DNA of 64,000 bases, taken from assembly GCF_003018115.1 (NCBI RefSeq), contig NZ_CP027457.1. One strand, given 5' to 3'. Under the pieces are notes generated by a model that worked only from the letters and a program-made list of their open reading frames with translations, ran no database searches and was not told the origin of the DNA. The position numbers and the translations under genes were made by a program. The DNA comes from Escherichia coli. GTDB taxonomy: Bacteria; Pseudomonadota; Gammaproteobacteria; Enterobacterales; Enterobacteriaceae. Position 1 is the first letter of the stretch; the number at the start of each line of letters is the position of its first letter. Positions 47,589 through 64,000 of this stretch are shown piece after piece.

Positions 47589-47717
47589 ACATTGGTGGGT
47601 CGTGCAGGATGACTCGCTTCGCTCGCCCTTCGGGCCGTCGCCGCGAGCGGCTCCGTTGTTTCGCTGCGCTCAACTCAAACCTGCTGCAGGTTCGAATCTT
47701 TGAGTATCGCAGATAGC

Positions 47718-47744
47718 AAAAAAGCGCCTTTAGGGCGCTTTTTT
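47718..47744 (-). terminator. Intrinsic terminator following lysQ (end of the tRNA operon)
   Basis: Minus strand AAAAAAGCGCCCTAAAGGCGCTTTTTT hairpin immediately 3' of the last tRNA. Confidence 0.7.
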
Positions 47745-47748
47745 ACAT

Positions 47749-47824
47749 TGGTGGGTCGTGCAGGATTCGAACCTGCGACCAATTGATTAAAAGTCAACTG
47801 CTCTACCAACTGAGCTAACGACCC
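47749..47824 (-). tRNA. lysQ: tRNA-Lys (UUU)
   Basis: 76-nt sequence (minus strand GGGTCGTTAGCTCAGTTGGTAGAGCAGTTGACTTTTAATCAATTGGTCGCAGGTTCGAATCCTGCACGACCCACCA). Confidence 0.9.
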
Positions 47825-47857
47825 CTTGCGGGATTATGATGCTTTAATCATTCAGGA

Positions 47858-47933
47858 TGGTGGGTCGTGCAGGATTCGAACCTGCGACCAATTGATTAAA
47901 AGTCAACTGCTCTACCAACTGAGCTAACGACCC
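47858..47933 (-). tRNA. lysZ: tRNA-Lys (UUU)
   Basis: Identical 76-nt tRNA-Lys sequence. Confidence 0.9.
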
Positions 47934-48079
47934 ATACGGGTGTTACCTGAAAGATTTTTACTCGGGGCCAATCTTTAAGATTGGTGGGTCGTGCAGGATG
48001 ACTCGCTTCGCTCGCCCTTCGGGCCGTTGCTGGCGCAACGTTATCCTTCACGCTTAACATCTGAGTTTGATGTTAAAAC

Positions 48080-48155
48080 TGGTGGGTCGTGCAGGATTCG
48101 AACCTGCGACCAATTGATTAAAAGTCAACTGCTCTACCAACTGAGCTAACGACCC
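48080..48155 (-). tRNA. lysY: tRNA-Lys (UUU)
   Basis: Identical 76-nt tRNA-Lys sequence. Confidence 0.9.
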
Positions 48156-48158
48156 GAG

Positions 48159-48234
48159 TGGTGGGTGATGACGGGATCGAACCGCCGACCCCCTCCTTGT
48201 AAGGGAGGTGCTCTCCCAGCTGAGCTAATCACCC
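48159..48234 (-). tRNA. valZ: tRNA-Val (UAC)
   Basis: 76-nt sequence (minus strand GGGTGATTAGCTCAGCTGGGAGAGCACCTCCCTTACAAGGAGGGGGTCGGCGGTTCGATCCCGTCATCACCCACCA). Confidence 0.9.
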
Positions 48235-48285
48235 GATACTGCGCTGGATACTACAAACTACTTCCACCGAACCCACCGTAATTAG

Positions 48286-48361
48286 TGGTGGGTCGTGCAG
48301 GATTCGAACCTGCGACCAATTGATTAAAAGTCAACTGCTCTACCAACTGAGCTAACGACCC
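48286..48361 (-). tRNA. lysW: tRNA-Lys (UUU)
   Basis: Identical 76-nt tRNA-Lys sequence. Confidence 0.9.
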
Positions 48362-48363
48362 GG

Positions 48364-48439
48364 TGGTGGGTGATGACGGGATCGAACCGCCGACCCCCTC
48401 CTTGTAAGGGAGGTGCTCTCCCAGCTGAGCTAATCACCC
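48364..48439 (-). tRNA. valT: tRNA-Val (UAC)
   Basis: Identical 76-nt tRNA-Val sequence. Confidence 0.9.
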
Positions 48440-48474
48440 GATACTACGCTGGATACTACAACTAACTAGGTTAG

Positions 48475-48550
48475 TGGTGGGTCGTGCAGGATTCGAACCT
48501 GCGACCAATTGATTAAAAGTCAACTGCTCTACCAACTGAGCTAACGACCC
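48475..48550 (-). tRNA. lysT: tRNA-Lys (UUU), first gene of the operon
   Basis: Identical 76-nt tRNA-Lys sequence. Confidence 0.9.
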
Positions 48551-48714: not shown

Positions 48715-49506
48715 TTACATCGCGTTCAGACGTTTTTGTGCCTGTTTAGCGCCATCAGTACCAGGGTATTTACTGATAACCTGCTGGTATACGGCTTTCG
48801 CTTTTGCGGTGTCACCTTTGTCCTGCATGATGACGCCGACTTTAAACATCGCATCTGCAGCCTTTGGTGACTTCGGATAGTTTTTCACTACCGAAGCAAA
48901 ATAGTACGCCGCATCATCTTTTTTACCCTTGTTGTAGTTTAACTGACCCAGCCAATAATTGGCGTTTGGCAGGTAAGTTGAATCAGGGTAATTTTTGATG
49001 AAATTCTGAAATGCCACCATTGCGTCATCCTGGCGGGATTTATCCTGCACCAGCGCAATAGCTGCATTGTAATCCGTGTTTGCATCACCGCTTTTCACCG
49101 GCGCGCCAGCATTCGCAGTACCAGCATCAGCTGTCGGCGTCGTTGATGCCGCCGCACCGCTTTGATCACCGCTGGTTGATTGCGCCGCTGCACCACCGCT
49201 GCTGAGGCTGTCGATCTGCAACAGGATCTGCTTTTGCCGCTCCACGACCTGATTCAGTTGATACTGATTTTCCTGAATCTGACCACGCAGGGAATCAATA
49301 TCGGATTGATTATCAGAGAGTTGTTGCTGGAGTTGGGTTAAAAGCTGGCTGTGAGCATTAGAAATACGCTCAAGTTGAGTGACGCGGTCTTCGACCGAGC
49401 CTGAGCCGACACTACTGATTGGTGCCTGAGCAAAAGCGGCCCAGGGGGCCGCTATACCAACCAGTAACGACAGACTCAATAGTTGATGTCTGAAGTTACT
49501 GCTCAT
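48715..49506 (-). CDS. cpoB: Cell-division coordinator CpoB (YbgF), TPR protein
   Basis: 263-aa ORF with signal peptide, coiled coil and TPR repeats; last gene of tol-pal. Confidence 0.9.
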   Translation of the reverse strand: MSSNFRHQLLSLSLLVGIAAPWAAFAQAPISSVGSGSVEDRVTQLERISNAHSQLLTQLQQQLSDNQSDIDSLRGQIQENQYQLNQVVERQKQILLQIDSLSSGGAAAQSTSGDQSGAAASTTPTADAGTANAGAPVKSGDANTDYNAAIALVQDKSRQDDAMVAFQNFIKNYPDSTYLPNANYWLGQLNYNKGKKDDAAYYFASVVKNYPKSPKAADAMFKVGVIMQDKGDTAKAKAVYQQVISKYPGTDGAKQAQKRLNAM

Positions 49507-49515
49507 GCAATTCTC

Positions 49516-50061
<546 letters not shown>

Positions 50062-56077: not shown

Positions 56078-57646
56078 TTAGCGTGCCGGCTGAGTAGTCG
56101 TGGAAGACTGCTCAAAGTGATAGCGACCGGTTTTCAGGCTGCTTGGGCCGAGGCGTGCAAACTTGAACATTAAGAACAATTCTGCCACCAGGAACAGGGT
56201 ATACAGGCCGCAAATCAGCACCATCGAGAAGATGAGGTCGCCTGCGGTCAGCGACGAGTTCGCCACGGCGGTAGGCAGCACTTCACCGATAGCCCACGGT
56301 TGGCGACCATATTCGGCAACGAACCAGCCCGCTTCTACAGCAATCCACGGCAGCGGAATACCGTACAGCGCGGCGCGCAGCAGCCATTTTTTCTCGCCAA
56401 TGCGGTTGCGGATGACACTCCAGAAAGAGAGCGCGATGATTGCCAGCAGCAGGAAGCCACACGCCACCATGATACGGAACGCGAAGTACAGCGGCGCTAC
56501 ACGCGGAATGGAGTCTTTGGTTGCCTGTTGAATCTGAGCTTCAGTCGCATCAGCCACGTTTGGCGTATAGCGTTTCAGCAGCAGACCGTAACCGAGGTCT
56601 TTCTTCATGCTATTGAACTGGTCACGAACCGCCTGGTCGGTAGAACCAGAACGCAGTTGTTCGAGCAGAGAGTACGCCTTCATCCCGTTACGAATGCGTT
56701 CTTCATGCTGCACCATCAGTTCTTTCAGGCCGATAACTGGAGTATCCACGGAACGCGTTGCAATGATGCCCAGCGCGTAAGGGATCTGGATCGCAAATTT
56801 GTTCGTCTCCTCTTCCTGATCAGGAATGCCGAACAGAGTAAAGGCAGCAGGCGCAGGTTGCGTTTCCCACTCGGCTTCAATAGCAGCCAGTTTGGTTTTC
56901 TGCACGTCGCCCATTTCGTAACCAGATTCATCACCCAGAACAATAACAGACAGAACGGCAGCCATACCGAAGCTGGCAGCGATAGCAAAGGAGCGTTTAG
57001 CGAAGGCGAAGTCACGACCTTTCAGCATATACCATGCGCTGATACCGAGGATGAACATCGCGCCAGTCACATAACCAGACGCTACAGTGTGAACGAATTT
57101 CACCTGAGCAACCGGGTTAAGCACCAGCTCGGAGAAGCTCACCATCTCCATACGCATAGTTTCAAAGTTGAAATCGGACGCGATTGGGTTTTGCATCCAG
57201 CCGTTCGCAACCAGAATCCACAGTGCGGACAGATTTGAACCGAGCGCCACCAGCCAGGTGACACACATATGCTGAACTTTACCCAGACGATCCCAACCGA
57301 AGAAGAACAGACCTACAAAGGTGGATTCGAGGAAGAAGGCCATCAGACCTTCGATTGCCAGCGGCGCACCGAAGATATCCCCTACATAGTGGGAATAGTA
57401 AGACCAGTTAGTCCCGAACTGGAACTCCATGGTCAGACCGGTAGCCACACCCAGAGCGAAGTTGATACCAAACAACTTGCCCCAGAACTTGGTCATATCT
57501 TTATAAATCTGTTTGCCGGAAAGGACGTAGACCGTTTCCATAATGGCCAGCAGGAACGCCATACCGAGCGTCAGTGGCACAAAAAGGAAGTGGTACATCG
57601 CGGTCAAGGCAAACTGTAAGCGCGACAGTTCGACTATATCTAACAT
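56078..57646 (-). CDS. cydA: Cytochrome bd-I ubiquinol oxidase subunit I
   Basis: About 522-aa [31 protein letters not shown]... Confidence 0.95.
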
Positions 57647-57983
57647 CATGACTCCTTGCTCATCGCATGAAGACTCCGAGAGTGAACCCCGTTAGAAAGG
57701 GTCACACGCATGCCCCAATACAAAATTATTTGCTCGCCTCTATCGTTGCCATTTCATCAAAAGAGGAAAAGACAATGATAAAAAAGTTACAAATATGTTA
57801 ATGAATAAACCAAATTGATCCCGTAATTATATTACGCCGCAAAATCCTTACAATAAACAGGTTTTTATTGAGCAAATTTGCATTTTTCGACAGTGATCAA
57901 TTTATAGCGAAATTGTCACGATCTCACCAATTTGATCTACGACAATTTATCGTGTTTTGCAGATTTTTTTCAAGAATTAAAAA

Positions 57984-57997
57984 TTGATTTATATCAA
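57984..57997. promoter_or_regulatory. FNR-type box (TTGAT-N4-ATCAA) in the cydAB upstream regulatory region
   Basis: Perfect palindrome TTGATTTATATCAA about 340 bp upstream of the cydA start. Confidence 0.55.
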
Positions 57998-58451
57998 AAT
58001 CAACCAAATATGTTAATTATGTATAAACCATAGATCATTGGTGATTTTATTGTTAATTTATTGTGAAATATTTATGCAACACAATTATTACAATGAAAAG
58101 GTATAGATAAAAAACCAGTATTTTATTTAACAGAACCGCCTTATCCACTTTTTATAATACCAATTGATTAGAGTAGCCAATTTGTTGCTATTTTACATAA
58201 CATATTTTTATCAAAGTTAATTGATTGTTGCCTTTATGAGCACCGACCGTAAGCCCGTTATGTTATTGTTTCATTAGTAATAATCACTTAAATGTATCGA
58301 TGAAACAGGTATGACTTACCGGGAGTGATTGTTTCTGAGTGAACAGAGGCCACTTTCGCCTGATAAATGAAAAATGAGCGATTTTTGCAAGTTAGTTTTT
58401 CTATAGCCGAGTACGCTCAGCGCCTCGCTTGATTACAATGAGGTTGCTGCT

Positions 58452-59396
58452 ATGAGTCCTGATAATATCGGTTCGGCTGTCAATCGCTTCTCAGGTTGGC
58501 CATCTAATGATCCTCTAAAAACAGATGAAGAATCAATGACATCACCCGTGACTGTGCAAGTAATAAAGATGATTGCCGCCATCCTTGACCCACATCGGAT
58601 AGTCGGTGGAATTGATACACTTTATACAACGCAGCGCGAAACATTTACCTCAGAGAGTCAACAGCTCATTGAATCAGCATTGCAAACACTTCATGTGATG
58701 AATTTAAATAATCTGGAAACAAATCGCGATGAAGAAGGTCACTATCTGGCTTTTGAATATAACGTTGACACCTCTGACAGAATAACCGTTTCTGCTTATA
58801 ATGAAAAAAAGCCTGGCTGCTATGGCCAATGTCTTTTAATACAGGATGACGAAACAGACTTATTTAACCTGATAAAAATTAAAATTTTCGAAGCCAGGCA
58901 TAATTATGTCGCTCAATTGATGAGCGATCCGGAATTTATGTTCAAATTCAGTTATAGCGCTCAACAAAATAGATTAGAACCTCATCTTCTGGTTCCCGCT
59001 TATTTCCCTCTAAAAACAAACGAACCGGTTACGCAAGAGGATGTACTGTTACTTTATCGTTTCTTTAAAATGAATGATGATTTTAATAAATTAACATCAG
59101 AGGAATACATGAGTATCATGACTCCTCTGATGAAGTGTGAGCGTAGCGTCCACGACAACAACAGGTATGTGACGGGCAAAGATACCCTTCTTCTGGACTA
59201 TCCTCCTTCTGGTAACCAGATACATTTCCATATTTTCCCTGACGAATCAGCAACACTAGTCCTTTATTTTTCAAACAATGACCTTGAATGTTTCGTCTTT
59301 GAAAGAGATATTCCTAGCCAGTATCGCTTTTTCAAAATGTTTACCAATCTGGCACTGGTTATAGATCAGTTAACCGAAGCCAATAAAATACTTTAA
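58452..59396 (+). CDS. Hypothetical protein (314 aa), AT-rich, no family recognised; internal YRFFKM repeat
   Basis: Long ORF in a very AT-rich segment; motif LYRFFKMNDDF / QYRFFKMFTNL occurs twice. Confidence 0.55.
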   Translation: MSPDNIGSAVNRFSGWPSNDPLKTDEESMTSPVTVQVIKMIAAILDPHRIVGGIDTLYTTQRETFTSESQQLIESALQTLHVMNLNNLETNRDEEGHYLAFEYNVDTSDRITVSAYNEKKPGCYGQCLLIQDDETDLFNLIKIKIFEARHNYVAQLMSDPEFMFKFSYSAQQNRLEPHLLVPAYFPLKTNEPVTQEDVLLLYRFFKMNDDFNKLTSEEYMSIMTPLMKCERSVHDNNRYVTGKDTLLLDYPPSGNQIHFHIFPDESATLVLYFSNNDLECFVFERDIPSQYRFFKMFTNLALVIDQLTEANKIL

Positions 59397-59476
59397 TTTT
59401 CTATATATCCCTATGGCAAATATTGCTAAACAATGCCTGGGGATTAATTTTTATTACTCACGGAAAGATTTAAATA

Positions 59477-59899
59477 ATGATACCATCTCAGATCTCTTTC
59501 AATACCCTTCCAGTCAATGCAACATACGCTTCAGAGACAACAGTTGACACACAAAAATTCTCTGACATCCTCTACTCAGCGGGGTGTTCCCTAAAGGATA
59601 TGGCTTATCTGAGCAGATGTCTGGCATCAATACACCCGACTCTCGCCAAAAACATTTATGAAACAGAAAATCTCAGCGATCAAAAATTACTGCATATTGA
59701 TTGCCGTAGTACAAATGACATCAAGATAAATATCTTTTTTGGTCAGCAACGAGAAGGATTAATTGAAATTAGTTCTGACACAGTTATTTTTTCGATACTG
59801 TCTTCATTGATTGACTCCGCCATTTCTAAATTTCAACATCAAAACCCCGTTAACGGTTCAGTTAATCCTGAACTATTGTATGAGGATTATACTGATTAA
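59477..59899 (+). CDS. Hypothetical protein (140 aa), AT-rich, acidic C-terminus
   Basis: ORF 80 bp downstream of the 314-aa gene, same strand. Confidence 0.5.
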   Translation: MIPSQISFNTLPVNATYASETTVDTQKFSDILYSAGCSLKDMAYLSRCLASIHPTLAKNIYETENLSDQKLLHIDCRSTNDIKINIFFGQQREGLIEISSDTVIFSILSSLIDSAISKFQHQNPVNGSVNPELLYEDYTD

Positions 59900-60446
59900 A
59901 CCCACCCAGTCGCGAAAAATGGCCTGCGTTATTGCCAGACGTAATAAAACCGTTGATTAACGTTACTCATACTGGTAGCACCTTCATGTACCTCTCTTTT
60001 TTACGAAAAATCAAAAGAGCTAACTAAGGTCATAATTCGCATGAATCATTAACCATTTGTTATTTTCAACATTATTTTTACATTAAGCAGAGATGAATTG
60101 CAGTGAAATTCGACTTAAATCTTATGAAATGCATTTACTCATGGCTAAAACCACGTCACAAAAATGCAAATTAGAAGTAGATCACAATTATCTCAATACA
60201 TTAAATCAAGTTAATTTTAAAAATTTAACATTCATGTCATTAGTTGACATAACACACTGAATTAACATGGAAATTTAAAAACACACTTTAAACAATCATT
60301 TCCCGAAAGACATTTTGAAAATAGATCAATTGCAACATTACGGTCAGATAAAGACACTCCTGTGATATTAAACCTGTGCCGTTATGAACGGCCATAAATA
60401 CGACGTGTGTAACTTATTTTACTCTCTGTCTTACAAAGGATTACCC

Positions 60447-60896
60447 ATGAAGAAAGCAACACTTGTGATTGGCGTTATTGGCGCGGACTGCCATGCAGTA
60501 GGCAATAAAGTTCTGGACCGCGTTTTTAGCAACCACGACTTCAGAGTCATTAATCTGGGCGTAATGGTCAGCCAGGACGAATATATTGATGCTGCCATCG
60601 AAACTGGCGCTGACGCGATTATCGTCTCCTCTATCTATGGGCATGGCGATATCGACTGTCTGGGCATGCGCGAACGCTGCATCGAGCGTGGACTGGGTGA
60701 CATCCTCCTCTATGTGGGCGGTAACCTGGTGGTCGGAAAACATGACTTCGCTGACGTGGAAACCAAGTTCAAAGAGATGGGATTTGATCGCGTCTTTGCC
60801 CCAAGTCATGACTTAGAAGATGTTTGTCAGCTGATGGCCCACGATATCAATCAACGTCATGACGTTGATACTCGTATTCTTGAAGAGGCTATCTGA
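60447..60896 (+). CDS. glmS: Glutamate mutase sigma subunit (methylaspartate mutase S; B12-binding domain)
   Basis: [27 protein letters not shown]... with the DxHxxG cobalamin-binding signature; about 149 aa from internal ATG. Confidence 0.85.
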
Positions 60897-62284
60897 TGCA
60901 AATCGTCTCTGTCGATATTGGATCGACGTGGACCAAAGCAGCCCTCTTCACCCGGGAGGGGGACGCGTTAACGTTGGTTAACCACGTACTGACCCCAACC
61001 ACCACCCATCATCTGGCGAAGGGGTTTTTCTCCAGCCTGAACCAGGTGTTAAACGTAGATAATGCCCTCCCCCTGTTAAACAGCGGTGAGGTTGCATTGA
61101 AGTATTCCTCCTCTGCCAAAGGTGGGCTGGCGGTTGCCGCAATGGGATTGGTGCCTTCTATCACCCTGGAAACCGCGAAAGTAACCGCTCACTCTGCGGG
61201 GGCTAAAATTGCGCAATATTACGCCTACAAGCTGAACCGCCGTGATATCCAGGCACTGGAAGAAACGCAGCCCGATATTCTCTTGTTCACCGGCGGCACC
61301 GACGGCGGAGAAGAAAGCTACGGACTGAATAACGCCCGTGTGCTGGCAGAATCCAAACTCGACTGCGCCATTATTTATGCCGGAAACCGGGATATTCAGG
61401 ACGAGGTGCAGGAGATCCTCGGGCATAAAGACCTGACCATCGTCGACAACGTTCTGCCCGATCTTGACCATCCGAACCCTTTAGCCGCACGCCAGGCTAT
61501 CTGCGACATATTCCTTAAACGCATCGTTAAAGGGAAAGGGCTGGATATCATTGTTGATAAAACAGGCGAAGAACCAATGCCGACACCGTGGACAGTCTTT
61601 GAACTGGTTAAGGCAATCAGTAATGTCGATCACAGCTGGAAAGAGTTCATGCTGATCGACATGGGTGGCGCAACCACCGATGTCTATTCCGCCTGTGCCA
61701 ACACGCTCTCGCCCGACACCGTTTTACACGGCGTACCGGAACCCTTCGTAAAACGGACGGTGGAAGGCGATCTGGGAATGCGCGTCTCGGCAATGGTGGT
61801 TGGTGAAAGTGCGAAAGAGTTAGTCAATGTGAATTTTGCTCAGCACCCCGCACAGCTGGACGCTTTTTATCATTACCTCCGTCATCTAGTCGCTCATCCC
61901 GACTACTTACCCGCAAATGCAGAAGAGAAATATTTCGATACCGTCCTGGCCGGACTGTGTGTGGGTTATGCCACCGAAAGACATGCGGGCACCAAAAAAG
62001 AGGTCTGCACCTGCGTCGGCAATGTCGATTTACAGATGGGACGTGACCTGACAACCGTGCGTAAAGTCGTCGGATCCGGCGGATGGCTCTCGCGTGCCTG
62101 TCAGTTCGATATGCATCACTGGTTGAAATACCGCGAGTTAAACGACGACGGTAAACGCATTCTCTTACCGACCGAATTTGAATATTACCGCGATTCCCGG
62201 GGGCTATTACCACTGCTGGCAAACGTCGCCAGAGTCGATCCGCTGGCCGCCGCGCGCACCAGTATTCAATGCTTAACCCTATAA
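60896..62284 (+). CDS. glmL: Glutamate mutase accessory protein (GlmL/MutL-like)
   Basis: 462-aa ORF between the S and E subunit genes with overlapping start (ATGA). Confidence 0.75.
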   Translation: MQIVSVDIGSTWTKAALFTREGDALTLVNHVLTPTTTHHLAKGFFSSLNQVLNVDNALPLLNSGEVALKYSSSAKGGLAVAAMGLVPSITLETAKVTAHSAGAKIAQYYAYKLNRRDIQALEETQPDILLFTGGTDGGEESYGLNNARVLAESKLDCAIIYAGNRDIQDEVQEILGHKDLTIVDNVLPDLDHPNPLAARQAICDIFLKRIVKGKGLDIIVDKTGEEPMPTPWTVFELVKAISNVDHSWKEFMLIDMGGATTDVYSACANTLSPDTVLHGVPEPFVKRTVEGDLGMRVSAMVVGESAKELVNVNFAQHPAQLDAFYHYLRHLVAHPDYLPANAEEKYFDTVLAGLCVGYATERHAGTKKEVCTCVGNVDLQMGRDLTTVRKVVGSGGWLSRACQFDMHHWLKYRELNDDGKRILLPTEFEYYRDSRGLLPLLANVARVDPLAAARTSIQCLTL

Positions 62285-62302
62285 CAATTAAGGCTGCAAT
62301 CA

Positions 62303-63748
62303 ATGGAACTTCGAAATAAGAAATTAACCCATGACGAATTCATGACCGAGCGGCAACAGGTACTGAAAACCTGGGAAACCGGCAAGGATGTTGAAAACTT
62401 TGAAGATGGCGTTAAATACCAACAAACCATTCCTGAGCATAAACGCTTCTCTCTTGCGCTGCTGAAAGCAGACAAGGAAGGTAAAACCCTTAGCCAACCG
62501 CGCGCAGGTGTGGCGCTGATGGACGAACACATCGAACTACTGAAAACACTACAAGAAGAGTGCGATCTGCTGCCGAGCACTATCGATGCATATACCCGTC
62601 TGAATCGGTACGAAGAAGCGGCTGTAGGAATTAAAAAATCCATCGAAGCCGGAACCTCTAAACTGAACGGTTTACCGGTAGTTAACCACGGCGTCGCAGC
62701 TTGCCGTCGCCTCACCGAAACCCTGCAAAAACCGCTACAGATCCGCCACGGCACGCCAGATGCGCGTCTGCTGGCTGAAATCTCGATGTCCAGCGGCTTT
62801 ACCAGTTACGAAGGCGGCGGCATTTCCTACAACATTCCGTATGCCAAACGCGTAACGCTGGAAAAATCGATCCACGACTGGCAGTACTGCGACCGTTTAA
62901 TGGGGATGTATGAAGAACACGGGATCCGCATCAACCGCGAACCGTTTGGCCCACTAACAGGTACGCTGATCCCGCCGTTTATCTCGCACTCTATCGCGAT
63001 AATCGAAGGCTTGCTGGCGCTGGAACAGGGTGTGAAATCTATCACCGTTGGTTATGGACAGGTCGGCAGCCTGACGCAGGATGTTGCGGCGATCCAGTCT
63101 CTGCGTGAACTTGCACACGAATATTTTCAGAGCTATGGCTATACCGACTATGAATTAAGTACCGTGTTTCACCAGTGGATGGGCGGCTTTCCGGAAGACG
63201 AATCGAAAGCGTTCGCTATTATCTCATGGGGCGCAGCCGTCGCGGGGATGTCTGGTGCCACCAAAGTCATCACCAAAAGTCCGCATGAAGCCTGGGGCAT
63301 CCCGACTGCCGCTGCCAACATTCAGGGGCTGAAAGCCTCCCGCCAGATGCTCAACATGGTCAACGAGCAGAAATTCCCGCCGTGCCCTGCGGTTGAACTG
63401 GAAATTGAACTGATTAAGAGCGAGGTTCGCGCGGTACTGAATAAAGTGTTCGAACTGGGTAATGGTGATATTGCGCGCGGTACGGTGCTGGCATTTGAAG
63501 CGGGCGTACTGGATGTGCCGTTTGCGCCAGCCGCCTGCAACGCGGGCAAAATTCTTCCGGTCCGTGACAACACCGGCGCGATACGCGTACTGGAAGCCGG
63601 AGCCGTTCCATTGCCAAAAGATATTCTCGACCTCCACCACGATTACGTTGCGGAACGCGCACGTTTTGAAGGACGCCAACCGACATTCCAGATGGTTGTA
63701 GATGACATCAATGCTGTATCCCATAGTAAATTAATAGGAAGACCATAA
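62303..63748 (+). CDS. glmE: Glutamate mutase epsilon subunit (methylaspartate mutase E)
   Basis: 481-aa ORF, TIM-barrel catalytic subunit by recognition; gene order S-L-E as in clostridial operons. Confidence 0.85.
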   Translation: MELRNKKLTHDEFMTERQQVLKTWETGKDVENFEDGVKYQQTIPEHKRFSLALLKADKEGKTLSQPRAGVALMDEHIELLKTLQEECDLLPSTIDAYTRLNRYEEAAVGIKKSIEAGTSKLNGLPVVNHGVAACRRLTETLQKPLQIRHGTPDARLLAEISMSSGFTSYEGGGISYNIPYAKRVTLEKSIHDWQYCDRLMGMYEEHGIRINREPFGPLTGTLIPPFISHSIAIIEGLLALEQGVKSITVGYGQVGSLTQDVAAIQSLRELAHEYFQSYGYTDYELSTVFHQWMGGFPEDESKAFAIISWGAAVAGMSGATKVITKSPHEAWGIPTAAANIQGLKASRQMLNMVNEQKFPPCPAVELEIELIKSEVRAVLNKVFELGNGDIARGTVLAFEAGVLDVPFAPAACNAGKILPVRDNTGAIRVLEAGAVPLPKDILDLHHDYVAERARFEGRQPTFQMVVDDINAVSHSKLIGRP

Positions 63749-64000
63749 TGAAAATAAAACAGGCCCTGTTCACCGCTGGCTATTCCTCATTCTATTTCGA
63801 TGACCAGCAGGCGATAAAAAACGGAGTGGGTCACGACGGCTTTTTTTATACCGGGGAGCCATTAACACAGGGGTTTAACGCCGTACGTCAGGCCGGGGAG
63901 TGCGTATCGGTACAGTTGATTCTGGAAAACGGCGCGGTCGCTGTAGGTGACTGTGCTGCCGTACAGTATTCCGGGGCAGGTGGTCGCGATCCACTGTTCC
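63748..64000 (+). CDS. 3-methylaspartate ammonia-lyase, N-terminal fragment (continues beyond window)
   Basis: MKIKQALFTAGYSSFYFDDQQAIKNGVGHDGFFYTGEPLTQGFNAVRQAGECVSVQLILENGAVAVGDCAAVQYSGAGGRDPLF; ATG overlaps glmE stop. Confidence 0.8.
   Translation, partial: MKIKQALFTAGYSSFYFDDQQAIKNGVGHDGFFYTGEPLTQGFNAVRQAGECVSVQLILENGAVAVGDCAAVQYSGAGGRDPLF

Follow-up and report, generated by a model that had tools for sequence, protein, structure and literature searches.

The window analysed here, a stretch of 64,000 nucleotides from Escherichia coli (contig NZ_CP027457.1), ends within a set of genes predicted to participate in the conversion of glutamate to mesaconate. Positions 60447-64000 harbour the intact genes glmS, glmL and glmE on the plus strand, followed by the first 84 codons of the methylaspartase gene mal, which is cut after 252 nt at the end of the window. 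The genes cydA (56078-57649) and cydB occupy the minus strand and point away from the glm genes, so that an earlier note on this DNA was right in placing the locus upstream of cydA. The packing is tight and operon-like, with overlaps of one base at glmS/glmL (TGATG) and glmE/mal (TAATG). The gap between glmL and glmE measures 18 nt, with an AAGG ribosome-binding site ahead of glmE, and an AAGGA ribosome-binding site is located 8 nt before the glmS ATG (60447).

Gene calls were judged by NCBIfam equivalog models with curated cut-offs, which the three complete genes exceed. The gene glmS (60447-60896, plus strand) encodes the predicted B12-binding sigma subunit of glutamate (methylaspartate) mutase, a protein of 149 aa that scores 253 bits against NF002612 (cut-off 110) and is 61% identical to GlmS of Clostridium cochlearium (PDB 1i9c). 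Its B12 motif DxHxxG is present as D14-C-H16-A-V-G19, and further motif positions are S61-S-I63, where Ile replaces the Leu of SxL, and G91-G92. Judged by these motifs, GlmS has the Rossmann-like B12-binding domain of the base-off/His-on type. Located between the genes of the S and E subunits, and with a start codon overlapping the glmS stop, glmL (mutL; 60896-62284, plus strand, 462 aa) encodes a putative accessory or reactivating protein of the mutase, with 508 bits against NF040745 (cut-off 475) and 890 against TIGR01319 of the GlmL family (cut-off 204). The third gene, glmE (62303-63748, plus strand, 481 aa), encodes the predicted epsilon (catalytic) subunit, which scores 863 bits against TIGR01503 (cut-off 390) and is 58% identical to PDB 6h9e_B over its full length. 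Seven out of seven equivalents of R66, R100, R149, E171, Y181, K326 and E330 (C. cochlearium numbering) are kept in the alignment of GlmE. The arginines participate in substrate binding, and Lys326 and Glu330 contact the adenosyl ribose. Hence both the DxHxxG motif and the catalytic residues, on which the earlier note had made its assignment depend, are present on alignment. GlmS and GlmE are predicted to form an adenosylcobalamin (AdoCbl)-dependent glutamate mutase, interconverting L-glutamate and (2S,3S)-3-methylaspartate. Our literature search found no report of an enzyme assay of the E. coli glutamate mutase.

Methylaspartase belongs to the enolase superfamily and depends on a metal. The need for adenosylcobalamin, which the earlier note had extended to all enzymes of the locus, consequently applies to the GlmS/GlmE mutase and not to the methylaspartase. 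In the window, mal (63748-64000, plus strand) encodes a fragment of 3-methylaspartate ammonia-lyase that aligns to positions 1-83 of TIGR01502. The gene is complete in E. coli F9792, the closest genome, which is 100% identical to the window across 57650-64000. The full-length F9792 protein scores 540 bits against TIGR01502 (cut-off 286), shares about 93% identity with its Citrobacter amalonaticus counterpart (PDB 1kko) across all 413 residues, and keeps Q172, H194, D238, E273, D307, Q329 and K331, its catalytic part being encoded beyond the window end. The identities proposed in the earlier note for glmS, glmL, glmE and mal are thus borne out by the equivalog models, for Mal via the F9792 gene. 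In agreement with this assignment, Mal of strain O157:H7 was active in vivo when expressed (bioRxiv 10.1101/2025.11.12.688011).

The full cluster was read in F9792, where it runs glmS-glmL-glmE-mal-cmlA-cmlB-(gltP-like)-fumD-cobO and a convergent gene for a LysR-family regulator comes next. The order from glmS to cmlB is also kept in Riflebacteria and another distant lineage. Directly after mal, cmlA and cmlB encode DUF1446 and DUF4387 proteins matching PDB 9erq and 9evf, "Citramalate lyase subunit A/B" (E = 4.7e-292 and 5e-57, respectively), and CmlA is about 91% identical to the 9erq protein. On the strength of these PDB molecule names and of one preprint, in which CmlAB of Raoultella planticola served as a direct citramalate lyase in vivo, the E. 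coli pair probably cleaves citramalate directly; no report of an assay of E. coli CmlAB was found in the literature search. FumD scores 1278 bits against NF011921 (cut-off 1060), and the FumD of O157:H7 is a mesaconase whose kinetics were measured (PMC4682846). The adenosyltransferase CobO also exceeds its NCBIfam equivalog cut-off. The transporter of the GltP/DctA family scores under the equivalog cut-offs, and its substrate may be glutamate. Mesaconase and citramalate lyase genes, which the earlier note had suggested to look for downstream, are therefore linked to the glm and mal genes as fumD and cmlA/cmlB, beyond the window end. The proposed pathway from glutamate via methylaspartate to mesaconate is supported, and its description as the first half of the methylaspartate pathway is accurate for glmS-glmL-glmE-mal but not for the cluster, which encodes the whole pathway.

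In the predicted route, a GltP/DctA-family symporter would import glutamate, and CobO would adenosylate imported cobalamin, because E. coli cannot synthesise B12 de novo. GlmS, with His16 as cobalt ligand, and GlmE would constitute the AdoCbl mutase, converting L-glutamate to (2S,3S)-3-methylaspartate by radical chemistry, with GlmL acting as its accessory or reactivating protein. Mal would then strip ammonia from methylaspartate to yield mesaconate, which FumD would hydrate to (S)-citramalate, a reaction biochemically shown for the O157:H7 enzyme. Finally, as suggested by the identity of about 91% and by the Raoultella preprint, CmlAB would split citramalate directly to pyruvate and acetate. 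We consider it highly probable (about 0.88) that 60447-64000 is the 5' end of the known nine-gene methylaspartate-pathway cluster for glutamate catabolism, located in a 15.5-kb segment between cydA and mngB that is present in some genomes and absent from others. A description of this cluster was published no later than 2015 (PMC4682846).

The DNA in front of the operon differs in composition. Between the cydA region and glmS there are about 2.4 kb with a GC content of 36%, and the sequence upstream of glmS is not shared with Pseudescherichia vulneris. Two orphan open reading frames are present on the plus strand, hyp1 (58452-59396, 314 aa, GC 38%) and hyp2 (59477-59899, 140 aa, GC 37%), followed by a spacer of 547 bp (59900-60446, about 32% GC) that presumably holds the operon promoter for the plus-strand genes. 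No match to Pfam, NCBIfam, PADLOC or PHROG was found for hyp1; its homologues among 5.8 billion clusters come from Escherichia only, and an exhaustive profile search against 1.84 billion representatives gave nothing beyond its own fragments. The dN/dS of hyp1 is 0.41-0.49, and a copy with 64% identity adjoins cydA without any glm genes (locus L005). A membership of hyp1 in the glutamate pathway is not demonstrable. Similarly, hyp2 had no significant match in NCBIfam, Pfam, PADLOC or PHROG, the lone PHROG match (E = 0.093) being far from significant; its homologues occur only in Escherichia, Shigella and E. albertii, and its dN/dS is 0.13. AlphaFold models (AF2) of hyp1 and hyp2, with pLDDT of 47 and 45.5, respectively, were too poor for a fold search. 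A kinship of both proteins, considered because each shows three strands and a helix in a similar arrangement, was unsupported (hhalign probability 0.8%).

A search with Rfam detected no match at E<=1 in 57000-64000 nor at E<=0.1 over the remainder of the cluster, and control of the operon by a cobalamin riboswitch was discarded since no such element was detected by Rfam in either part. Across the entire window, Rfam detected only a tRNA array, RtT and the cpoB thermometer. Matches to promoter and terminator consensus sequences in 57600-64000 were no commoner than in shuffled sequence, and therefore we claim no promoter; upstream of glmS, no promoter, LysR site or riboswitch was identifiable. 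Almost all E. coli genomes that carry the glm operon have hyp1 and hyp2 linked to it. It is conceivable, although quite improbable in our judgement, that the two reading frames and the AT-rich DNA control the B12-dependent glutamate pathway as a module specific to this lineage, e.g. a silencing/anti-silencing switch. If so, such a module could explain the failure to induce the operon in E. coli.

Among 5426 complete genomes of E. coli, the cluster occurs in about 1135 (~21%), and Kronen & Berg in 2015 reported it in 26.5% of E. coli strains, including O157:H7 (PMC4682846). Genomes of O55:H7 and O145:H28 strains match the window at 98.4-98.6% identity. P. vulneris possesses the cluster at the same site, and the module is also present on a conjugative Salmonella plasmid. 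Matches to 4.9-Mb "plasmids" in PLSDB were ignored as mislabelled E. coli chromosomes. Within E. coli, dN/dS of the cluster genes is 0.06-0.13 at dS of 0.06-0.11, which demonstrates ongoing purifying selection. Against P. vulneris, dN/dS is 0.04-0.06 with saturated dS (at least 2), compared with a dS of about 1.0 for cydA and sucD; this gap could reflect codon bias or separate histories.

In K-12, mngR-mngA-mngB lie between sucD and cydA and glm genes are absent, both as expected in the earlier note, which placed mngRAB at this position and read the locus as an island that had replaced them. That reading fits the K-12 arrangement and the complete lack of mngRAB from some genomes (loci L003 and L005, and L008 of P. 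vulneris). Nevertheless, mngB-mngA-mngR are intact just past the cluster in every carrier inspected, F9792 and A25 among them, and according to blastn, homology to K-12 stops at 58022 and restarts exactly at the mngB stop codon; a replacement of mngRAB is therefore next to impossible. The 15,537-bp segment, which in F9792 extends from the region upstream of cydA to the mngB stop codon, takes the place of only a K-12-type spacer of about 470 bp, which holds a 228-bp hypothetical open reading frame. Its left flank is the cydA upstream control region (57650-58022, not assigned to a strand), which is common to cluster-free strains and represents a deeply diverged form with about 80% identity to K-12, as established by blastn of K-12 and EC2 against F9792 and by identity bands over 5426 genomes. 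The annotation of the 15.5 kb in F9792 includes neither integrase nor transposase, no terminal direct repeats of note flank the segment, and its junctions lie upstream of cydA and at the mngB stop codon rather than at a tRNA. A classical integrative genomic island, with an integrase or recombinase, flanking direct repeats or a tRNA attachment site, was accordingly rejected.

Regarding function, the cluster might be a silent relic in E. coli, intact but unused and slowly being lost, perhaps silenced along with the AT-rich stretch that precedes it. Strain O157:H7 ATCC 700728 did not grow on glutamate, with or without cobalamins, no methylaspartase activity was detected, and neither expression nor activity was observed in any condition tried (PMC4682846). 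Partial losses, namely a deletion from glmE' to rtcB in A25 and an ISEc13-associated one in E2348/69, as well as the 36%-GC DNA before glmS with its upstream sequence not shared with P. vulneris, are also in line with decay. However, 1122 of the 1135 carriers keep at least 80% of glmS-glmE, the purifying selection described above is continuing, the catalytic residues are all intact, and FumD and Mal of O157:H7 are active enzymes, which makes a relic unlikely. Kronen & Berg speculated that the products are excreted (PMC4682846), and the pathway could accordingly stop at mesaconate or (S)-citramalate, released as a signal or host-directed metabolite instead of being cleaved for energy. This is hard to reconcile with the position of cmlA/cmlB directly after mal, with the close match of both proteins to deposited citramalate lyase subunits (about 91% identity for CmlA, a strong match for CmlB), with the use of CmlAB-type proteins as a direct citramalate lyase in vivo in the preprint, and with the synteny of cmlAB and glm-mal across phyla; we regard excretion as very improbable. 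A catabolic cluster beside mngRAB is the preferred reading.

As a discovery the locus carries little weight, since the literature already covers the cluster, its occurrence among strains and the majority of its enzymes; being well documented and beside mngRAB, not in their place, the finding is real but ordinary. Nonetheless, E. coli has very few pathways that depend on B12, of which this is one, and the cluster marks pathogens of phylogroup E (O157:H7, O55:H7 and O145:H28). With CmlAB named as a direct citramalate lyase, the cluster can be interpreted as encoding every step from glutamate to pyruvate, acetate and ammonia, which fills a gap of the 2015 account, and the retention of mngRAB averts a wrong annotation as a replacement. 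The locus is a reasonable target for expression and fitness experiments that address what induces it and what it does in the gut.

The cluster described by Kronen & Berg is the same locus, comprising glmS, glmL (mutL), glmE, mal, a DUF1446 gene, gltP, fumD, cobA/cobO and an LTTR regulator (PMC4682846). Nothing substantive differs except for the strain background, here closest to F9792. The 2015 account left the fate of citramalate open, and the DUF1446/DUF4387 pair is now named citramalate lyase CmlAB in PDB; the F9792 proteins are orthologues of 9erq/9evf, with a predicted lyase activity in E. coli. C. cochlearium and C. tetanomorphum possess the same S-L-E-mal order (GlmS 61% and GlmE 58% identical), and the B12 motif, substrate-binding arginines, Glu171 and Tyr181 are common to the clostridial and E. 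coli mutases. However, the clostridial clusters continue with the two-subunit mesaconase MesAB, whereas E. coli encodes the single-chain class I fumarase FumD, and the clostridial citramalate lyase is of the ACP-dependent citrate-lyase type (CitDEF and CitCXG), to which CmlAB is unrelated. Unlike the clostridial clusters, that of E. coli also has its own transporter and adenosyltransferase. In F9792 Mal, the catalytic residues Lys331 and His194 are identical to those of the C. amalonaticus ammonia-lyase (1kko/1kkr), as are the metal-binding Asp238, Glu273 and Asp307. In the haloarchaeal methylaspartate cycle, glutamate mutase and methylaspartase likewise lead from glutamate to mesaconate, but mesaconate is converted there to mesaconyl-CoA for acetate assimilation (PMC4682846). 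CoA-transferase and hydratase genes are absent from the F9792 cluster, which together with the presence of FumD and CmlAB indicates a catabolic route.

By the ORF list, the plus strand of the window harbours four closely packed genes: glmS (60447-60896), glmL (60896-62284) and glmE (62303-63748), encoding the sigma, accessory and epsilon proteins of glutamate mutase, and the initial 84 codons of the 3-methylaspartate ammonia-lyase gene mal (from 63748, cut off by the window end). Two junctions overlap, TGATG between the glmS stop and the glmL start and TAATG between the glmE stop and the mal start; ahead of glmE there are 18 nt of intergenic DNA, including an AAGG ribosome-binding site. A longer glmS ORF could start at 60384; the start at 60447 has an AAGGA ribosome-binding site, gives an N-terminus that agrees with the clostridial protein and corresponds to the RefSeq annotation. 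On the minus strand, cydA (56078-57649) is divergent from the glm cluster, and cydB has the same orientation. The 2.8-kb spacer between cydA and glmS is mostly AT-rich (27-41% GC vs ~51% for the glm genes). The window also contains two common E. coli features, the lysT-valT-lysW tRNA array with RtT repeats (47593-48550) and the cpoB/ybgF RNA thermometer (49477-49615).

E. coli F9792 (NZ_CP024273.1) matches window positions 57650-64000 at 100% identity; for O55:H7, O145:H28 and the other listed carriers of the cluster, the figure is 97.4-98.6%. Over the last 24 kb, F9792 differs from the window by 17 substitutions and one gap, and its genome was used for the genes beyond the window end.

Protein identities were scored with NCBIfam equivalog models against the curated cut-offs. 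GlmS reached 253 bits (cut-off 110), GlmL 508 bits (cut-off 475; GlmL family 890, cut-off 204), GlmE 863 bits (cut-off 390) and the full-length Mal of F9792 540 bits (cut-off 286); for the 84-residue Mal fragment of the window, the alignment to the methylaspartate ammonia-lyase model spans model positions 1-83. Compared with the solved sigma subunit structure of C. cochlearium, GlmS shows 61% identity and possesses the B12 elements D14-x-H16-x-x-G19 and S61...G91-G92. GlmE is 58% identical to PDB 6h9e_B over the whole length. The equivalents of Arg66, Arg100, Arg149, Glu171, Tyr181, Lys326 and Glu330, whose roles are known from the glutamate mutase literature, are all kept in the alignment. 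Full-length Mal is ~93% identical to the characterised methylaspartase of Citrobacter amalonaticus (PDB 1kko) and keeps Gln172, His194, Asp238, Glu273, Asp307, Gln329 and Lys331. The scores and the residues conserved with the solved structures thus bear out the gene identities proposed in the earlier note; of the two findings that would have refuted it, neither loss of the B12-binding motif or catalytic residues nor presence of these genes in K-12 was observed.

Downstream of mal, the F9792 genome encodes a DUF1446/'AtuA family' protein, a DUF4387 protein, a dicarboxylate/amino-acid:cation symporter, a class I fumarate hydratase, CobO, a convergent LysR-family regulator and an RtcB-family protein, and the cluster is then adjoined by mngB, mngA, mngR and sucD. 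The fumarase was identified as FumD (NF011921, 1278 bits vs a cut-off of 1060); FumD of O157:H7 is a mesaconase/fumarase preferring mesaconate two- to three-fold (Kronen & Berg, PMC4682846). The DUF1446 protein matches 'Citramalate lyase, subunit A (cmlA)' of PDB 9erq/9evf (E 4.7e-292, ~91% identity) and the DUF4387 protein matches 'subunit B (cmlB)' of the same entries (E 5e-57); a CmlAB citramalate lyase step is inferred from orthology to these deposited proteins. The order glmS-glmL-glmE-mal-cmlA-cmlB was also found in Riflebacteria and another distant lineage, and this recurrence supports a functional link of CmlAB with the pathway. With FumD and the putative CmlAB, the cluster encodes the methylaspartate pathway in full rather than the first half alone. 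Pairs of DUF1446 and DUF4387 genes (cmlA/cmlB-like) were also present without glm or mal genes, in an Accumulibacter chromosome (L014 9001-10679) and in Klebsiella plasmids (H90-H95). The roles or substrates of this family probably extend further than glutamate fermentation.

In K-12 MG1655 the order is sucD-sdhX-mngR-mngA-mngB, followed by 846 bp and cydA, in agreement with the earlier note on mngR-mngA-mngB, and the glm genes are absent. Alignment with K-12 and the K-12-like strain EC2 placed the left junction at window position 58022, in the cydA upstream region, where homology stops; it restarts precisely at the stop codon of mngB. The 15,537-bp segment between these junctions is specific to the carrier and stands in place of a K-12-type spacer of ~470 bp holding a 228-bp hypothetical ORF. 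The locus had been interpreted as a replacement island. However, mngRAB is retained beside the cluster in F9792 and only the spacer is displaced; the reading of the enzymes is right, and that of a replacement is not supported. Annotation, junctions and a repeat search revealed no integrase, transposase, tRNA junction or flanking repeats in or around the segment. At its mngB end lies a stand-alone RtcB-family RNA ligase paralogue (carrier sequence L001, 32372-33769; 465 aa), with a full PF01139 domain, scoring below all NCBIfam cut-offs and giving no match in a PADLOC search. This paralogue is kept in strain A25 despite the deletion of glutamate genes, and is absent from Pseudescherichia vulneris.

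The cydA-sucD interval is polymorphic, with several versions among E. coli genomes. Reading class sizes from identity bands via a few inspected representatives (L002/K-12, L003 and L001), the K-12-type version with mngRAB only accounts for ~3181 of 5426 genomes, the version with a TPR pseudogene and neither mngRAB nor glm (L003) for ~1122, and the version with both the cluster and mngRAB for ~1124. Between K-12 and F9792, ~375 bp beside cydA (window 57650-58022) and ~500 bp at the 3' end of mngB (L001 33911-34409) are only 80-82% identical, whereas the remaining flanks show 95-99.8% identity. Such diverged tracts within similar DNA suggest either an old polymorphism or the import of the whole haplotype by homologous recombination. 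The cydAB control region of E. coli therefore exists in strongly diverged forms, with a possible effect on regulation by ArcA/FNR.

Two AT-rich ORFs, hyp1 (58452-59396, 314 aa) and hyp2 (59477-59899, 140 aa), are located between cydA and glmS, with a GC3 of 0.34-0.36. Neither showed a significant family match or detectable domain in NCBIfam, Pfam, PADLOC or PHROG, their predicted structures were too poor in quality for use, and sequence searches found homologues confined to Escherichia, Shigella and E. albertii. With dN/dS of 0.41-0.49 for hyp1 and 0.13 for hyp2, they show weak to moderate purifying selection. Their co-occurrence with glm in E. coli is almost perfect (1138 vs 1135 genomes). 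Nonetheless, a genome lacking the cluster (L005) has a 64%-identical hyp1 beside cydA, and hyp1 and hyp2 are missing from the P. vulneris genome although it carries the cluster. They are therefore best viewed as an unexplained insertion distinct from the cluster.

Of 5426 complete E. coli genomes, 1135 carry the glmS-glmE stretch at 95-100% identity, 1122 of them with at least 80% coverage. P. vulneris carries glmS-glmL-glmE-mal-cmlA-cmlB-gltP-fumD and a convergent lysR at the same cydA-sucD site, in a genome without mngRAB, cobO and rtcB. In Yersinia and Salmonella the cluster occupies other locations. Salmonella Macclesfield harbours the whole glmS-to-cobO module plus the glutaminase gene glsA on the 416-kb conjugative IncFIB plasmid NZ_CP022118.1 (L018 7001-18145), flanked by transposase genes and with an HdeA/HdeB chaperone gene nearby. 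This setting suggests transfer of the module as one piece and a possible link to acid resistance. The cluster has decayed independently in A25 (L004 16653-17528), where a deletion runs from a truncated glmE through lysR, and in a derivative of E. coli O127:H6 E2348/69 (L016 6001-8391), where hyp1-hyp2-glmS is retained, ISEc13 comes next and the DNA as far as a fragment of mngA has been lost.

For O157:H7 ATCC 700728, Kronen & Berg found no conditions for expression of the genes, no growth on glutamate, whether or not any of three cobalamin forms was supplied, and no methylaspartase activity (PMC4682846); plasmid-expressed O157:H7 Mal works (bioRxiv 10.1101/2025.11.12.688011). Rfam detected no riboswitch in window 57000-64000 or the rest of the cluster, and a consensus scan of 57600-64000 revealed no convincing promoter. 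The dN/dS values are low, both within E. coli (F9792 vs cS51a: glmS 0.13, glmL 0.10, glmE 0.06; dS 0.06-0.11) and against P. vulneris (0.04-0.06 for all measurable cluster genes), which argues against the cluster being a decaying relic.

The 2001 O157:H7 genome paper reportedly listed glutamate fermentation genes among the O157:H7-specific islands, and Kato & Asano (1997; reference 27 of PMC4682846) reportedly used methylaspartase as a marker of the methylaspartate pathway in Enterobacteriaceae. The locus is the published enterobacterial glutamate fermentation cluster (PMC4682846).
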